A stretch of DNA of 9,861 nt from a virus (IMGVR_UViG_2529292920_000001:1-9861), one strand, 5' to 3'. Positions 1 through 9,861 are shown, numbered from the stretch's first letter. Notes: a model not told the origin generated them from the sequence alone. Numbers and translations are program-made.

Positions 1-2
1 GG

Positions 3-1573
<1,571 letters not shown>

Positions 1574-1723
1574 CCATAAAGTTTCGACAACTAAAAAAAG
1601 AGAGTGCTGAACTTCATTAAAGAGTTGCATCCGGTACTGGCTAACATTATATTTATATACGACTAGTATATAGGGGGGCGCGCTGTTAATCTCATTTTAA
1701 TGAGACATATCAGTGCTTGAAGG

Positions 1724-1757
1724 GAGAGGGCGGAGTTCGGCTTTGCCCTCTCTTTTT
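1724..1757 (+). terminator. Candidate Rho-independent terminator for the ATPase/HNH operon
   Basis: Stem GAGAGGGC (1724-1731) pairs with GCCCTCTC (1745-1752) around a 13-nt loop, followed by TTTTT (1753-1757); about 150 nt downstream of the HNH gene stop. Confidence 0.5.
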
Positions 1758-1792
1758 CATGACTCCATTTAGCTTCAAATACTTGTTAAAAC

Positions 1793-2089
1793 TCATTGCA
1801 TTATTGCAACAGATTGATTAATAATTCCAATTAATGTGTTTATTTTTTCATTTATCTTAATGTGTTTTTTCTCTTGTTCAAGAGAAAGCTTCCTGAATTC
1901 ATTTTTCCTGCTCGGCACAGCAACTATCAATTCTTCATAAATCTCCTTTGCTCCTGATACTTTCGCCAACTCACTGCTGTGTTTTTCAATAAGAGAATTT
2001 ATTTGGATGTTTATATTCCTGTGTTCATGACTGGTAGCACTTGAAACAAGTTGACAGGAAGGCTTTGGGGTTGCCTCAATTAATTCCAC
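1793..2089 (-). CDS. Hypothetical protein, 98 aa, predicted helical
   Basis: ORF in the AT-rich stretch, 21 nt downstream of the 80 aa ORF on the same strand. Start is GTG (2087-2089) with no clear Shine-Dalgarno; no recognisable motif. Confidence 0.3.
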   Translation of the reverse strand: MELIEATPKPSCQLVSSATSHEHRNINIQINSLIEKHSSELAKVSGAKEIYEELIVAVPSRKNEFRKLSLEQEKKHIKINEKINTLIGIINQSVAIMQ

Positions 2090-2110
2090 GCATGTTATTG
2101 CGACATTGAA

Positions 2111-2353
2111 TTAAGATGTGGTTGAGTATAAATATTGATACACTCCTGTTTTTCTTACTTTGTTTAATAGTCCTTTTTTAACCAGGTATTGAATTTGATT
2201 ATAAGTAAAAGCTTTTGCCTTTAAATAAGTTTTCGGAAGTGAAAATCGCTCGATAAGAATTTTTGCTACATCGTTACTGGTGAAGTTATCTTTGCCAATG
2301 TAGATGATTGCAGAAAATATGTACGACTCAGAGTTGGTTACTCGACTATTCAT
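2111..2353 (-). CDS. Hypothetical small protein, 80 aa, possibly winged-helix DNA-binding
   Basis: ATG at 2351-2353 (minus strand), divergent from the HTH gene. A candidate -35 TTGTCT / -10 TATACT pair (18-nt spacer) lies on the minus strand upstream, overlapping the palindromic operators. Sequence pattern (VAKILIERFSLPKTYL...YLVKKGLL) loosely suggests a wHTH fold; not verified. Confidence 0.4.
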   Translation of the reverse strand: MNSRVTNSESYIFSAIIYIGKDNFTSNDVAKILIERFSLPKTYLKAKAFTYNQIQYLVKKGLLNKVRKTGVYQYLYSTTS

Positions 2354-2375
2354 ATGACTAGAACAAGGCTGTTGA

Positions 2376-2424
2376 CTTAGGATTGCTAAGTATACAACAA
2401 TGACAGATACTTAGACAATCTAAG
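2376..2424. promoter_or_regulatory. Two copies of a 15-bp palindromic operator-like site (CTTAG-N5-CTAAG) in a divergent promoter region
   Basis: CTTAGgattgCTAAG at 2376-2390 and CTTAGacaatCTAAG at 2410-2424, centres 34 bp apart. A larger inverted repeat CTAAGTAT (2386-2393) / ATACTTAG (2407-2414) links them. They sit between the divergent starts at 2353 (-) and 2451 (+). Confidence 0.5.
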
Positions 2425-2450
2425 CATCCGAGGCCAATGAAGATGAATCA

Positions 2451-2783
2451 GTGTCTGAAAAAAATCCGATACCAGAACGACTTAAGGAAGCGAGATGCAG
2501 GGCGGGTTTATCACAGCGCTCTCTGGGTCTCCTTGTTGGCTTTGATCCCGCATCGGCTAGCAGTCGTATGAATCATTATGAGAAAGGACGCCATGTCCCC
2601 GATATTGATACACTTCGAAGGATGGCGGCAGAGTTAAACGTGCCGTTGAACTACTTTTTTTGTGATGATCAGACAACAGCAGAACTTGCATTACTCATAT
2701 CCCGGATGACAGAGGAAGAGCGAAGTAGCCTTATCGAAGCACTCAAAACGTGTTCAGGTGTAAAACATGCTGACAAAAAATGA
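2451..2783 (+). CDS. XRE-family helix-turn-helix transcriptional regulator, 110 aa
   Basis: N-terminal Cro/C1-type HTH pattern (LKEARCRAGLSQRSLGLLVG ... MNHYEKGRHVPDIDTLRRMAAELNVPLNYFF). GTG start at 2451, so the exact start is uncertain. Stop TGA at 2781-2783 overlaps the next gene. Confidence 0.7.
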   Translation: MSEKNPIPERLKEARCRAGLSQRSLGLLVGFDPASASSRMNHYEKGRHVPDIDTLRRMAAELNVPLNYFFCDDQTTAELALLISRMTEEERSSLIEALKTCSGVKHADKK

Positions 2784-2961
2784 TGTTATACAAAAGGCTA
2801 TTGATCTTTTTGAAGGTAACGAAAGTGCAGCATTAAACTGGTGCAATGAACCAAACAGAGCATTACAGTGGAAAACGCCCTCTGAGATAATGGACTCAGA
2901 AGAGGGGGCGTTGAAAGTTGCCATGCTCATTTTTCGAATAGAGCAAGGCGTTTATTCATGA
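2767..2961 (+). CDS. Small DUF2384-like protein (Xre/MbcA/ParS antitoxin toxin-binding domain-like), 64 aa
   Basis: Own ribosome-binding site AGGTG (2756-2760) 6 nt before ATG at 2767. Pattern ALNWCNEPNRALQWKTPSEIMDSEEGALKVAMLIFRIEQG resembles the DUF2384 toxin-binding domain (recalled, not searched). It overlaps the HTH gene by 17 nt in the +1 frame. Confidence 0.5.
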   Translation: MLTKNDVIQKAIDLFEGNESAALNWCNEPNRALQWKTPSEIMDSEEGALKVAMLIFRIEQGVYS

Positions 2962-2975
2962 TTTACGACCCATCT

Positions 2976-3004
2976 AATTTCTCCAACTAACGGTTGGAGA
3001 AATT
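2976..3004. terminator. Strong hairpin between convergent genes, candidate bidirectional terminator
   Basis: Perfect 12-bp stem AATTTCTCCAAC (2976-2987) / GTTGGAGAAATT (2993-3004) with 5-nt loop TAACG, between the + gene ending at 2961 and the - gene ending at 3078. A/T-rich stem flanks but no long T-tract. Confidence 0.4.
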
Positions 3005-3077
3005 TGGGAAGGTAAGCAATATACAGAATGACGGAAAGAAATCGTCCATGCCCTTTGTCGAAAAATTACAACCAGCA

Positions 3078-3512
3078 TTATGACGACTTGTGTAACTCCC
3101 GAATTACATGTTTGGCCAACAGACTTTCCACCGGAATAACCGTATTGATTTTTACCGCTTTGACAATTTCTATCAACGACAGGGTATTCTGCGCCAGTTG
3201 GTCTCGCAGCTCACTGACTTCCGCCTGCAACTGCTGGTTTCTGGCCAGCAAGGCCTGACGGGTTTTGCGGTTGACGTATTGCTGTTTTTCTTTTGGGCGT
3301 AGATTCAATGGGCCAAGTTGCTGATCAACATAGGCAGCAATTAGGCGTTTTCGCTCAAGGCTGCTCAGCGTACTTAAACCACCGTTAACGATACCTTTTG
3401 CCTTGAGCCGAATATGCAGGGCCTTGGCGGAAATAGGGGACTTGTCAAAGCCTTCAACCAGCATCAGTTGTAATTCGTGCTCGATCAGTGTGTCCAGTTC
3501 CTTGCCGCGCAT
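3078..3512 (-). CDS. Small coiled-coil accessory protein of the recombinase operon (TnpC-like by position), 144 aa
   Basis: ATG (3510-3512) overlaps the stop of the upstream 424 aa gene in an ATGA arrangement. C-terminal half predicted coiled coil (ARNQQLQAEVSELRDQLAQ). No catalytic motif recognised. Confidence 0.5.
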   Translation of the reverse strand: MRGKELDTLIEHELQLMLVEGFDKSPISAKALHIRLKAKGIVNGGLSTLSSLERKRLIAAYVDQQLGPLNLRPKEKQQYVNRKTRQALLARNQQLQAEVSELRDQLAQNTLSLIEIVKAVKINTVIPVESLLAKHVIRELHKSS

Positions 3513-4786
3513 CAGTCGTTCTCCTGCATCAATTGTTGGTATTCAAGTGCAAAAAGCTGGGCCAGTGTACGGACTTTGCCCTCGGTGATTACTCCACCAG
3601 ACAACACACTCTCCGCAGCAACCAGTTGTTGAGTCTTGGCACGACGCTGCCATTGTGCTTGTATTGCCTCGAGTTGCTGTAACCGTCGTTCGATGTCGGC
3701 CAGTCTGGTCTGGTAGTCAGGCTGATGTTGTGTAAGTTGGGTCAACTTCGAATGTGCTTGCTGTAACGCCTGTTTTTTGGCAATCAGATTGGGTAGCTCA
3801 TCTATCCGGCCTGTCAGCGTGAAATGTTCACAAAAGGCAGCACTCTGGCATTTCAGTCGATAAGGACATCCCCAGAGGTTAACTTCCCGCATACAGGAGC
3901 CAAATTTCAGCGGATACATCACGGCATGTCTTGCCACCATGGCAGAGGCTTGCTCTGGTCCTTCTGCGTCGCGGATTTCTTCAAAGGCGGCAGCAACATC
4001 TTCAAAGAGGCCGTCAGCAAATGACGCCTCGACAAACCTAGCTACATCATCCCGATCGTCAAAAGTATGCAGGTTGGCTTTGATGGTATTGTCCAAAGTC
4101 ATGTGTTCCGTGACCGCCAGTTGGCCGGTCCGTTTGACGATTTCCAGTGGCGTAGCAACGGAGGACGAAGAGGGCGCGGCAGTTAGTGCTGTCGATATCG
4201 GCTGCAAGGGCACCAACGAGGCTGCTTTTCGCCGTTCTGCAAGCGCCAGATGCTGATAGTGCTGATTCTGCGTGATGTCCACTCTCCCCATCAGCATTGC
4301 CTGTAAGTGGTCAGCGATATCCGCAATGGCAAGAAAGGTATTGATGTTGTGCCGGGGAATGTGGGTACGCATCCGGGTGGGGGTACCATTCTCTTCCAGT
4401 AATTGATATTTGCTGAATACTGATCCATCAGGCTCAACATTGCCTAAAAATTTATTCATAAGTGTGTTAGTGAAGGGTATCGGTATAGCCAGCAAAGCCA
4501 GTGTGCGCTTTAATGCCAGCGAACCCTTCTCATGTAGAAATAACAGGTCTTCGTAGTTAACTTCGTAGCGTTTGCCATTTTCCATCCAGGCGTGCGTACA
4601 GGGTTCGTTGGCATTCGTCAGGCCAAATTCGGTCTTGATGTAATGATTAAGGTCAGTCTTGGAATAGAGGATTTTTAGGCCGAAAATGATGTAGTAGAAA
4701 TATCGAGGATCAATTTCCTGAGTTTCAAGGTAATTTTGAAATACTTTCAACAAATGCAGGTGTATAAATGGTACTATTCGACTCAT
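3512..4786 (-). CDS. Atypical tyrosine recombinase-like protein with C-terminal Cys-cluster/coiled-coil extension, 424 aa
   Basis: Residues ~142-180 read HIPRHNINTFLAIADIADHLQAMLMGRVDITQNQHYQHL, which aligns with tyrosine-recombinase box II (HxxRH ... LLGH ... Y), with Arg in place of the usual His and a candidate catalytic Tyr at ~177. A ~245 aa C-terminal extension follows, with C-x7-C-x5-C-x5-C-x-H and a Gln/Leu-rich coiled coil. Start is 9 nt after the upstream recombinase stop, without a Shine-Dalgarno. Confidence 0.6.
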   Translation of the reverse strand: MSRIVPFIHLHLLKVFQNYLETQEIDPRYFYYIIFGLKILYSKTDLNHYIKTEFGLTNANEPCTHAWMENGKRYEVNYEDLLFLHEKGSLALKRTLALLAIPIPFTNTLMNKFLGNVEPDGSVFSKYQLLEENGTPTRMRTHIPRHNINTFLAIADIADHLQAMLMGRVDITQNQHYQHLALAERRKAASLVPLQPISTALTAAPSSSSVATPLEIVKRTGQLAVTEHMTLDNTIKANLHTFDDRDDVARFVEASFADGLFEDVAAAFEEIRDAEGPEQASAMVARHAVMYPLKFGSCMREVNLWGCPYRLKCQSAAFCEHFTLTGRIDELPNLIAKKQALQQAHSKLTQLTQHQPDYQTRLADIERRLQQLEAIQAQWQRRAKTQQLVAAESVLSGGVITEGKVRTLAQLFALEYQQLMQEND

Positions 4787-4794
4787 TTAACTGT

Positions 4795-6252
4795 TTATTG
4801 ATTCGACTCATATGCACTCCATTCGTCACATACATGAGAAAAGGTTGCTCTCAGGGCCTCGTTATCCATAGCGATTCGGTGAAGATTGGCCGTATTAGCC
4901 TGCTGTGATAGAAATCTTTTGGCATAAACATCAGGCATATGGCTATTGTGACTCCAGCCGCCAAGCAGTCGTAATTCATCCTTGGCTTCATCCATTAATC
5001 CAACGATAGAAAAATCCATGACAGCCTGGAGTGAGTCGGCCTTAGTTTTTTGAAGTTTTTCACGATAAATGCGTTGAAGTGTCAAATAAGCCCAGGTATG
5101 CCGGGTTATATGAGGCGAGATGCTTTCAATGGCATCATAATATTCATCTGTTTTATATTCAGGATACCGCACACTCATAATGTCATCAATCCGGGTAAAG
5201 ATATCATAAACTGCATGGTATGACAGTGGCGGGTGTGGTTTTTGGGTGGAAGTGAACAGAAAACTATGGGAGGCTTGAGGGCGAATTTTATTGATATATA
5301 TATTTAGAAAATGAAAGTCCAGTTTATCTAATGCCAGCACCCGGTTTGCATAGACATTTTTTAATGAAGGCAATCTTTTTCGCTGATCCGAAACGTCGTC
5401 ATCTACTGTGGTCACAATCAGGCTGAACTGATCCCCTCGGAGATTTGGTTTGATCGAATGACACTCCAAAAGCAGTAATTCACTGACACGCAATCCGTAA
5501 TTTAAAAGCAATCTGCAAATCAGAAAATTACGTAGCTGGATTTCACCAGCGGGGAAGGGATTAAGTGGGTTTTTCTTTGAAATTGAACCGGGTGTAATGA
5601 TTTGGTAAAAAGCCATGACCATCTCAGCAGTCAGACTTCGAAAGCGCTTATGGGTCGTGCCATTGTTCATCTGACGAGAATGGGTAAGAGTACGGAATTC
5701 TGCTTTATGTATCGATAACCGTCCCGTTAACTGCGTGGCAAGTCGTGTGAGCTCTTTAGGTGAGCCATCTATATATCTCGGCGAGATATACGTGTTAATC
5801 AAATATCTGATAAAACGAATAACCGAATGTACATGCCTGATATTTGTACGACGTTGAGGCGTGGTCTGCGTCGTAGACCTTATGGTTAACGCTGGTACAT
5901 ATAAATGCGTATTTTCCAGATAATGAAAAAAGGCTGTAAGTTCATCAATGGCAATCAATGGATTGTGGTTCGAGGAATAGAAACTGAAGCAAAAAGTCAC
6001 GCCATGGTGCCAGAATTCATAGAAAAACTTGAGCGCTTGAAGTGAAGAGGATTGCGTGGCTGATGAACGCAAAGCAAGATGGTCTATAAGATATATTAAC
6101 GGATATAAAAGCGGCTGGCGCGTGTGAGTATCCATCAGTGCCCATAAACGCTGCCGTTGGTTGATATTGAGTTGTGTGAGTATGAACACGCGGCATTTAA
6201 CCATCGTAAATGGTGTGGGTATGAACAAAGTAACCGACAAACATAACGTCAT
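4795..6252 (-). CDS. Tyrosine recombinase / integrase, 485 aa
   Basis: Box I-like GLRVSELLLLECHSI, box II HITRHTWAYLTL, and LLGGWSHNSHMPDVYAKRF giving the LGH-like motif and a catalytic Tyr near the C-terminus. No Shine-Dalgarno before the annotated ATG, so the true start may be internal. Confidence 0.8.
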   Translation of the reverse strand: MTLCLSVTLFIPTPFTMVKCRVFILTQLNINQRQRLWALMDTHTRQPLLYPLIYLIDHLALRSSATQSSSLQALKFFYEFWHHGVTFCFSFYSSNHNPLIAIDELTAFFHYLENTHLYVPALTIRSTTQTTPQRRTNIRHVHSVIRFIRYLINTYISPRYIDGSPKELTRLATQLTGRLSIHKAEFRTLTHSRQMNNGTTHKRFRSLTAEMVMAFYQIITPGSISKKNPLNPFPAGEIQLRNFLICRLLLNYGLRVSELLLLECHSIKPNLRGDQFSLIVTTVDDDVSDQRKRLPSLKNVYANRVLALDKLDFHFLNIYINKIRPQASHSFLFTSTQKPHPPLSYHAVYDIFTRIDDIMSVRYPEYKTDEYYDAIESISPHITRHTWAYLTLQRIYREKLQKTKADSLQAVMDFSIVGLMDEAKDELRLLGGWSHNSHMPDVYAKRFLSQQANTANLHRIAMDNEALRATFSHVCDEWSAYESNQ

Positions 6253-6506
6253 GCAAGAAGAAGATAGAGGGATAGGTAAGTGTATGATTGATCGTAGTCT
6301 GTGGCTGGTTATGAACTAAATGAACGGCGGACTAAATTTAACATAATATACATTATGCGCACTGTTATCAGGACTGATGAAAACCGAAGGCCAGTCATCA
6401 CCAGAATTGCTGTAACCCATCAATTTCATCAACTGGCCACATCAATGCATGGACGACTCACGCCTTGCGTCGTTCGTCTCGATAGCTGCCCTTTAAAAGC
6501 GGCCTG

Positions 6507-6534
6507 GCAGGAAGCGCGTTGCGCTGTCTCCTGC
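6507..6534. other. Imperfect GC-rich hairpin in the recombinase/phage junction
   Basis: GCAGGA-AGCGC-gtt-GCGCT-(gtc)-TCCTGC: outer 6-bp and inner 5-bp stems with a 3-nt bulge. Shares the core CGCGTTGCG with the palindrome at 6607-6623. Confidence 0.35.
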
Positions 6535-6606
6535 TGCTCTGTAATTTCTCCCTGGCTTCGGCGGTCAGGCAGCTGCATCACATGAAACATCATCATGCCG
6601 CCTTAC

Positions 6607-6622
6607 ATGCCGCGTTGCGGCA

Positions 6623-6623
<1 letters not shown>
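6607..6623. other. Palindrome ATGCCGC-gtt-GCGGCAT abutting the pIV gene stop
   Basis: 7-bp arms with a 3-nt spacer, ending at the first base of the pIV stop codon (6623-6625). No T-tract follows on the minus strand, so it is not a canonical intrinsic terminator. Confidence 0.3.
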
Positions 6624-8937
<2,314 letters not shown>

Positions 8938-8951
8938 AAATCACCCTCTTA

Positions 8952-9235
<284 letters not shown>

Positions 9236-9252
9236 AATTCACCACCTGATTA

Positions 9253-9861
<609 letters not shown>

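Follow-up and report, generated by a model that had tools for sequence, protein, structure and literature searches.

Two deletions in the recombinase operon of a putative GInt-type island at dif create a chimeric 424-amino-acid reading frame

Three minus-strand reading frames and the origin of the second

The viral sequence IMGVR_UViG_2529292920_000001:1-9861 (9,861 nucleotides; the whole stretch is called the window here) carries three tightly coupled open reading frames (ORFs) on its minus strand, at 4795-6252, 3512-4786 and 3078-3512, as the original prediction had stated. A gap of 8 nt separates the first from the second, and the second and third overlap by 1 nt. The first, a mechanical ORF of 485 amino acids (aa), encodes the tyrosine recombinase GinA, as judged from a profile match and from motifs. 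The second, likewise a mechanical ORF, comprises 424 aa and is best taken as a pseudogene, while the third is an intact ginD gene for a small coiled-coil accessory protein of 144 aa. Here, we show that the 424-aa ORF is a chimera that arose by deletion within a four-gene operon, ginA-ginB-ginC-ginD. We hold with high confidence that window positions 1-6342 represent the ginA-proximal part of an island of the GInt type ('Genomic Island with three Integrases') that sits in the XerD arm of dif, has decayed by these deletions and is most likely locked in place.

The intact arrangement is found in a sister island of E. coli 2017-02-1CC with 99.9% identity, where GinA, GinB, GinC and GinD comprise 466, 516, 788 and 144 aa, respectively. 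In intact E. coli relatives the first two genes are annotated as 'site-specific integrases', the 788-aa product as a 'hypothetical protein', and a 144-aa protein follows. When aligned base by base with the intact island of strain LD93-1 (L002), the window proves to be short of two segments, of 274 bp and 2335 bp. The same two segments are missing with respect to 2017-02-1CC (L070), with flanks that are 99.5-99.9% identical. Together, the deletions took away the greater part of ginB as well as the 5' half of ginC. What the 424-aa ORF consequently consists of are 17 out-of-frame ginB residues, GinB residues 119-141 and GinC residues 405-788.

Its start codon is an internal, out-of-frame ATG of ginB at window position 4786, with no Shine-Dalgarno sequence or other obvious ribosome-binding site upstream. 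The authentic ginB start at 4811, which is preceded by GGAG, now yields no more than a stub of 28 aa (4725-4811, minus strand), since the frameshift caused by the 274-bp deletion leads into a stop. The same deletion brings the frame of 4786 into register with GinB 119-141, and the 2335-bp deletion then joins GinC 405-788. Between the two junctions sits an internal ginB remnant, codons 119-141 (4667-4737, minus strand), whose high-scoring segment pair (4666-4737 against LD93-1 12001-12072) shows 98.6% identity. It is followed by the 3' part of ginC, codons 405-788 (3512-4666, minus strand), with 99.2% identity to LD93-1 GinC 403-788. Sequence overlap at the junctions is limited to AAAA (4 nt, 4734-4737) and a single T (1 nt, 4666). 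The 274-bp deletion is also seen alone in other strains (protein P0093), which shows that the decay took place in two steps. In a large sequence collection the exact 424-aa protein is encoded by 2 contigs only, and the arrangement is absent from all 5,426 complete E. coli genomes searched.

The retained 3' part of ginC keeps the HxxR / GR / Y block, the four-Cys knuckle and the coiled coil; gone are the core-binding domain and, with it, two conserved residues, the Arg of box I and the Lys of the beta-hairpin. This accounts for the motifs quoted for the 424-aa ORF, which are indeed present (HIPRH 142-146, MLMGR 164-168, QHYQH 175-179). That they fall into the N-terminal 180 residues is true of this ORF, but their position is an artefact of truncation. 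Its cysteines are C298, C307, C313 and C319, with H321 adjoining, and the predicted coiled coil is borne out by long helices at about 330-383 of the structure model and by its conservation in full-length GinC. In this model residues 1-43 are disordered, the middle is poorly defined and only the C-terminal domain (210-395) is confident. A Foldseek search with the model returned no recombinase match, the best hit being an unrelated protein with E 0.17. A 424-aa protein without a recombinase fold, which the original prediction had named as grounds for its refutation, is thus what the model shows for the ORF as it stands; the model of its full-length parent does have such a fold. Pfam and NCBIfam hold no family for either the 424-aa or the 144-aa ORF, and PHROGs gave trivial matches only. 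The 424-aa ORF is a deletion chimera, not a native protein or a new kind of protein, and its product is most likely a pseudogene product without a catalytic domain.

Full-length GinC and the gin operon

The parent protein was studied through an alignment of 54 GinC relatives and a structure model of a near full-length member (P0021, 709 aa, mean pLDDT 72). The top 43 Foldseek matches of the P0021 model are Cre, Tn1549 Int or Flp. In the alignment, a box-I-like motif TG[FL]RSxE carries its Arg in 26 of 27 sequences, and a hairpin motif GxKGAG its Lys in 28 of 29. Further downstream follow H-I-P-R-H (His in 52 of 53, Arg in 52 of 52), M-G-R and Y-Q-H (Tyr in 51 of 51). The Arg of M-G-R occupies the place of the usual His or Trp in all 52 sequences, and the replacement of the LLGH His that had been noticed in the 424-aa ORF is hence a real trait of the GinC family. 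All four cysteines are invariant. The His that had been counted with them is not conserved and is N, H or Y across the family, so that the cluster stands as four Cys without it.

In LD93-1 GinC, the box I Arg 249 and the Lys 294 both lie upstream of the breakpoint at 405. The missing box I and the N-terminal position of the motifs in the 424-aa ORF are therefore explained by a truncation that removed the upstream part of GinC, and the earlier remark that no clear box I precedes them does not describe the native protein. According to the model, GinC is a protein of the tyrosine-recombinase fold with the pattern R..K..HxxR..GR..Y, a four-Cys knuckle and a coiled coil. A search of PDB sequences with the GinC family profile gave nothing relevant.

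The 485-aa GinA protein has a weak but genuine match to PF00589, the profile that the original prediction had proposed for a search, with E 3.8e-5 (below Pfam's own cutoff), and it matches a PHROG integrase with E 2e-9. Its R/HxxR/W/Y motifs are YGLRVSE (252-258), HITRH (381-385), LGGWSH (430-435) and DVYAKR (441-446). The start annotated in GinA relatives corresponds to window position 6189 and gives 464 aa here. Compared with relatives, the ginA gene of the window has a 6-bp in-frame deletion (QK), and its product is 99.6% identical to LD93-1 GinA and homologous to GinA of the P. aeruginosa plasmid pTROUS1 (E 3e-13). In the intact element, GinA and GinB are tyrosine recombinases that possess the full catalytic set. 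GinB has a C-terminal four-Cys cluster of its own (C431, C438, C446 and C449, invariant in the family alignment; LD93-1 GinB 429-449), which follows the catalytic domain and parallels the Cys knuckle of GinC. Judged from sequence, the two clusters may represent a common interaction or zinc-binding module of paralogues. The ginD product is 97% identical to LD93-1 GinD, and among the related loci that were scanned, most have ginD directly after ginC.

When one genome of each species was scanned for the GinC motif, 61 loci were obtained, all in Gammaproteobacteria, of which 43 have enough flanking sequence to be judged. The A-B-C-D gene order recurs in Enterobacterales, Acinetobacter, Psychrobacter, Aeromonas, Vibrio and others. 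All four genes are full length, with GinC of 780-860 aa, in 31 of the 43 judged loci; the remaining 12 are visibly decayed, with gin genes split or truncated. Within E. coli, relatives of the operon occur in 275 of the 5,426 complete genomes, and in 111 of these a single place holds at least 80% of the operon's length. Numerous independent fusions of the types GinB::GinC and GinA::GinC are found among database proteins, as are internal GinC deletions. Deletion chimeras were recorded as P0001, P0005, P0006, P0009, P0010, P0012, P0018, P0026, P0027, P0035-P0037, P0053, P0079 and P0086. The gin operon decays often, possibly through neutral erosion or through selection against recombinase activity next to dif.

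Island ends, cargo and neighbours at dif

Upstream of ginA lies a dif-like Xer site (6336-6363, minus strand) with a single mismatch to E. coli dif, which concerns the outermost base of the XerC arm; one such match was observed against 0 expected in 200 shuffles. The XerD arm faces the island. Its outer part, the 7-bp core ATTTAAC (6336-6342, no strand assigned), forms the ginA-proximal island end. The adjoining terminal region of the island (6300-6335, minus strand) holds two close GTTCAT motifs (GTTCATTTAGTTCATAAC, minus strand). Homology to K-12 and ETEC6 begins exactly at the dif-like site. The empty target site that had been proposed as a check was found in K-12, where CAGACATG-ATTTAAC-ATAATATACATTATGCGCACC is dif itself; in the junction alignment this site reads CAGACATG-ATTTAAC-ATAATATACA.

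Neither the window nor locus L006 extends as far as the distal end of the island described here, and the sister island of 2017-02-1CC was used in its place. There, the same 7 bp are found on both flanks of a 15.45-kb island. In ETEC6, the distal junction is CAGACATG-ATTTAAC-TTATGTTG and the ginA-proximal junction GGACTAA-ATTTAAC-ATAATATACA. The core thus agrees among both ETEC6 junctions, both 2017-02-1CC junctions and the K-12 empty site. In the sister islands the flanking repeats, TTATGTTAAAT and ATAAGTTAAAT, are alike at 9 of 11 positions with the 7-bp core exact, and the distal end shows an AT-rich stretch, TTTTTATTAAAAATATTAAGTTAAAA. It follows that the outer XerD arm is the place of insertion and that an entire dif has been regenerated beside ginA.

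A second dif-like 28-mer was not found, with up to 8 mismatches allowed in L001-L005 (including LD93-1) and up to 6 in 2017-02-1CC, which argues against Xer-mediated integration of the IMEX type. Since the distal junction keeps only the 7-bp core, it appears to be the element's own recombinases, not XerCD, that insert it. Three islands that are otherwise divergent have GTTCAT[A/G]A-type motifs at their distal ends, about 20-30 and 85-115 bp from the core; a further one at 150-165 bp is present in ETEC6 and LD93-1 only. These motifs, which have a background of 0.68 per kb, recur near both island ends and may be recombinase-binding sites.

The location at dif extends to the family. A complete dif-like 28-mer stands upstream of ginA in 35 of 50 loci, with the XerD arm against the element and mostly about 100-180 bp (range 66-301) from ginA. 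The 50 loci belong to Enterobacterales, Acinetobacter, Moraxella, Aeromonas, Vibrio, Shewanella, Providencia and Kangiella. On a Klebsiella IncFIB plasmid, a further copy likewise adjoins an Xer-type site, here that of the plasmid (L071 3897-3924). Of 118 plasmids with a GinC relative, 88 are typed as conjugative. From these observations emerges the idea of a GInt lineage, recognizable by the GinC motif PRHNINTF...MGR[VI]DIxQN, which targets the outer XerD arm of Xer sites. Its own recombinases would occupy dif without destroying it, and its members would shuttle between dif and conjugative plasmids and decay frequently. We regard this as a serious possibility that falls slightly short of being probable. 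No paper linking GInts with dif was found in the literature searched, including searches for dif together with genomic islands and tyrosine recombinases.

The cargo at this site differs between strains: LD93-1 has a type I restriction-modification system and ETEC6 a CBASS-like set, and 2017-02-1CC and L006 share retron Ec78 together with an ABC-three-component (ABC-3C) system. The suggestion that the module mobilises defence cargo is in good agreement with the intact relatives, which carry different cargos at the same site, but it probably no longer applies to the deleted copy. The window itself contains the 3' part of retron Ec78 ptuA (102-920, plus strand; ORF cut at the window edge; PtuA E 1e-103) and ptuB (923-1573, plus strand; PtuB E 3e-65). 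L006 3400-12915 continues the same island past the left edge of the window, and its counterpart in 2017-02-1CC is 17851-26934 of L070. The full cargo comprises retron Ec78 (a reverse transcriptase with St85-family annotation, PtuA and PtuB) and the ABC-3C (Lamassu-like) system with an AAA_23 ATPase, MC2 and CTD6, so that two defence systems reside on the 15.45-kb island.

Nearer to the operon, a conserved cargo-proximal gene of 186 aa (1793-2353, minus strand) is split into ORFs of 80 and 98 aa by an in-frame stop (E81 to stop). An 'internal stop' is annotated in 2017-02-1CC too, and this lesion therefore predates the gin deletions. The first cargo gene, facing ginD, encodes an XRE-type helix-turn-helix protein of 110 aa (2451-2783, plus strand) and overlaps a gene for a 64-aa protein with an MbcA/ParS/Xre antitoxin domain (2767-2961, plus strand). 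The pair is also present in 2017-02-1CC and in the Klebsiella plasmid copy. Conserved next to ginD in several islands and this plasmid copy, it may belong to the backbone of the element, perhaps as a regulator. The 64-aa ORF represents only the C-terminal toxin-binding domain of ParS/MbcA-type antitoxins, and no RES or other toxin gene was seen near the pair.

On the XerC side of the dif-like site, the window continues with a filamentous (inovirus-like) prophage (6364-9861), for which a comparison with a phage collection gave trivial matches only and no close relative. Its genes encode a secretin (6623-7882) and a Zot-like pI protein (7879-8937), followed by a small protein of the membrane (9032-9235) and, at 9253-9549, by the C-terminal portion of a protein resembling pIII. 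An 18-bp tandem repeat (9624-9825, 11.2 copies, 96% identity) reads as (GSGTGT)n in one minus-strand frame and resembles the glycine-rich linker of the phage pIII adsorption protein; the 91-aa 'AAVRVQ' ORF listed in this repeat is probably in the wrong frame. LD93-1 and 2017-02-1CC have other elements on this XerC side of dif. In LD93-1 (L002 13955-17010), an insert of about 3 kb immediately outside the XerC arm has genes for an ISNCY transposase and for a zinc-binding protein of the ECs_2282 family, besides two hypothetical ones. The outermost base of its dif-like site is changed from C to T, as in the window, and no second dif-like site was found on the far side of this insert.

Family assignment, mobility and comparison with known systems

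In GInts, the ginABCD operon lies at one end of the island, annotations frequently list GinC as hypothetical, the small GinD bears a weak likeness to Tn554 TnpC, cargo follows ginD, the distal end is AT-rich and imperfect direct repeats flank the island (Bardaji et al. 2017, PMC5385486). The distal end of GInts is also short and little conserved, and the repeats measure 10-17 nt. In its intact form, the element described here has this organisation. The order ginA-ginB-ginC-ginD is found in the sister island and recurs in related loci, with two tyrosine recombinases, a large fold protein and a small coiled-coil protein. GinC is large, is predicted to adopt a tyrosine-recombinase fold, has a degenerate signature and is usually annotated as hypothetical. 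Variable cargo begins immediately after ginD and includes defence genes, as reported for E. coli GInts (PMC10121019). The insertion site is specific, and the AT-rich distal end and imperfect direct repeats of 10-11 nt are seen in the sister islands, the distal end of the window's island lying outside the window.

Homology was judged by published standards: Hochhauser et al. (2023) used at least one integrase with E < 1e-5 and the same organisation, Bardaji et al. three consecutive coding sequences with E < 0.1. A tblastn search of plasmids led to pTROUS1 of P. aeruginosa, which carries a four-gene element right after ssb, a gene that Bardaji et al. (2017, PMC5385486) reported to be targeted by six GInts. 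In BLASTP comparisons of E. coli with pTROUS1, GinA, GinB and GinC gave E values of 1.6e-13, 5e-19 and 9e-13, respectively, each best at the same position. The required similarity thus exists via pTROUS1, whose element is itself taken for a GInt only on account of layout and ssb target. From the layout and this position-wise homology, we assign the module to the GInt family, as a relative of Tn554 rather than Tn554 itself.

For the intact element, we propose that its own recombinases would excise it and would integrate it by a site-specific crossover within the 7-bp core GTTAAAT, which is common to the element and the outer XerD arm, so that a complete dif would be left next to ginA; GinC and GinD would act as required partners of the recombinases. 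In the lineage of the window, the 274-bp deletion came first and the 2335-bp deletion second, and the 424-aa ORF spans the scars by accident. The island is thereby most likely fixed in an E. coli-like chromosome, its defence cargo still complete. Pseudomonas GInts require the full set of four gin genes both to excise as a circle and to integrate again (PMC5385486), and by analogy with these experimentally tested elements the window copy has probably lost its mobility.

Several points weigh against this interpretation. The conserved motif block of GinC is poorly modelled (pLDDT <50 at P0021 431-495), and its catalytic residues are assigned from the motif pattern together with the overall fold of the model. 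Alignments of the GinC family profile with PF00589 are not significant, though they show the expected motif register, and the same holds for hhalign comparisons of the GinC family with GinB and with the GinB profile (E 0.13 and 0.058). For this reason the recombinase assignment of GinC rests on structure; the HxxR, Arg-for-His and Tyr positions that had been proposed for the 424-aa ORF do fit both the family conservation and the register of these weak, non-significant alignments. The GInt status of pTROUS1 follows from layout and ssb insertion and carries no published label, and BLASTP shows no significant similarity between GinD and the GinD of this Pseudomonas element. The essentiality of four genes was shown for Pseudomonas GInts only, and the lost functions might be supplied in trans if the cell harbours another GInt. 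Finally, the chimera has an open reading frame and a C-terminal domain with a predicted fold, so that a residual function is possible, though nothing supports it.

This last point leads to the alternative that survives best, which we still consider unlikely: truncated GinC, read as the 424-aa ORF or from an internal start, would keep a function through its folded C-terminal Zn-knuckle/coiled-coil domain, and it might bind GinA or GinD and so block excision or incoming related GInts at dif. Residues 210-395 are indeed the confidently modelled part, many residues around the four invariant Cys are invariant as well, and the independent GinB::GinC and GinA::GinC fusions that recur in databases keep this C-terminal domain. 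Random decay, however, explains this recurrence equally well, and the list is biased towards such proteins, the query having been the C-terminal part. Each fusion is also rare, mostly stemming from clusters of 1 to 12 member sequences, and the missing ribosome-binding site of the 4786 ATG speaks against expression of the ORF.

We find it very improbable that host XerCD moves the island at dif, in which case the loss of ginB and ginC would leave mobility unaffected. Such a mechanism would be in agreement with an island that abuts dif exactly and with the filamentous prophage, a typical XerCD-integrating element, on the other side of dif. But no more than 7 bp of the XerD arm (9 of 11 positions) are left at the distal junction, and no second dif-like 28-mer turned up in the loci scanned with up to 8 (L001-L005) or 6 (L070) mismatches, so that the XerC arm and central region needed for Xer recombination are missing on one side; the element also has its own conserved recombinase operon.

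Hardly tenable is the view of the original prediction, a native three-gene module of the Tn554 type whose second protein evolved into a non-catalytic regulatory or structural partner. The three ORFs are tightly packed, motifs are present in the 424-aa ORF, and the last gene is TnpC-like according to the literature, so that a module with several tyrosine recombinases and a TnpC-like last gene stands; a native three-gene set does not. The 424-aa ORF results from two deletions when set against intact islands with four genes and 99.9% identity, its first 17 residues are out-of-frame ginB sequence behind an ATG without Shine-Dalgarno sequence, it is known from 2 contigs only, its model has no recombinase fold, and four genes are the norm of the family. 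That the deletions are assembly or sequencing artefacts is scarcely believable: short-read assemblies can collapse paralogous regions, but the same 424-aa product is encoded in an NCBI assembly and, independently, in the Logan assembly of a different run, other strains carry the first deletion by itself, and ginB and ginC share no DNA repeats to cause a collapse, the junction overlaps being only 4 nt and 1 nt.

With a decayed GInt-type island as the preferred reading, the 424-aa ORF should be annotated as a ginB/ginC pseudogene remnant and not as a new recombinase-like family. The window illustrates how a mobile defence island becomes fixed, its recombinase operon eroded and its retron Ec78 and ABC-3C cargo intact. 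The most interesting lead, the targeting of dif, concerns the family and not the 424-aa feature that had been flagged. If it holds true, the XerD arm as a landing pad would be a third way of exploiting dif, besides Xer-dependent IMEXs and filamentous phages, and dif-targeting islands would deliver defence systems to the terminus. It would also help to explain why the hipA-ydeT interval is a defence hotspot in E. coli, #20 of Hochhauser et al. (2023, PMC10121019). GInts are reported for 7.5% of Escherichia replicons (PMC10214605).

Among known systems, recombinase-in-trio (RIT) elements likewise have three adjacent genes of the tyrosine-recombinase family. The RIT elements consist of three recombinases of ordinary size, have long terminal inverted repeats and are not known to include a small fourth gene.

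IMEXs (CTXphi, TLC, GGI and filamentous prophages such as that at 6364-9861) also occupy dif and leave a usable dif behind. Lacking a recombinase gene, they lie between two dif-like sites that contain both Xer arms, whereas the island of the window has its own recombinase operon and only a repeat of 7-11 bp at the far end, with no second dif-like site found in the loci scanned.

Tn554 of staphylococci and enterococci shares with the present element two tyrosine recombinases and a small accessory protein for site-specific insertion, a longer second recombinase with a C-terminal extension, and the reported weak likeness of GinD to TnpC. It is set apart by its gene layout, with three genes and no GinC/Tfp counterpart (PMC10214605), and by its hosts among the Firmicutes. 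In the gin operon, GinC with its predicted recombinase fold stands between the second recombinase and the small gene, and the three-ORF look of the window arises by deletion from four genes, unlike the native three of Tn554.

The strand-biased circularizing integrative element (SE; Idola et al. 2023, PMC10214605) agrees in having four core genes, gammaproteobacterial hosts and site-specific insertion, and includes a non-canonical protein of the tyrosine-recombinase fold as well as a small coiled-coil accessory protein. However, the SE gene order is intA-tfp-intB-srap, with the fold protein second, whereas here it comes third, after both recombinases; Tfp/Srap and GinC/GinD also form separate sequence clusters (PMC10214605).

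From the GInts described by Bardaji et al., whose supplement holds no dif-type att sequences and whose examples target ssb or an ABC-transporter gene, the present island differs in four respects. The window copy has lost ginB and half of ginC. Its GinD shows no detectable similarity to the Pseudomonas GinD. According to published descriptions, GinC is without the first Arg (PMC5385486) or has none of the RHRY set (PMC10214605), whereas the GinC family of the window keeps the box-I-like Arg and the Tyr. The target here is the XerD arm of dif.

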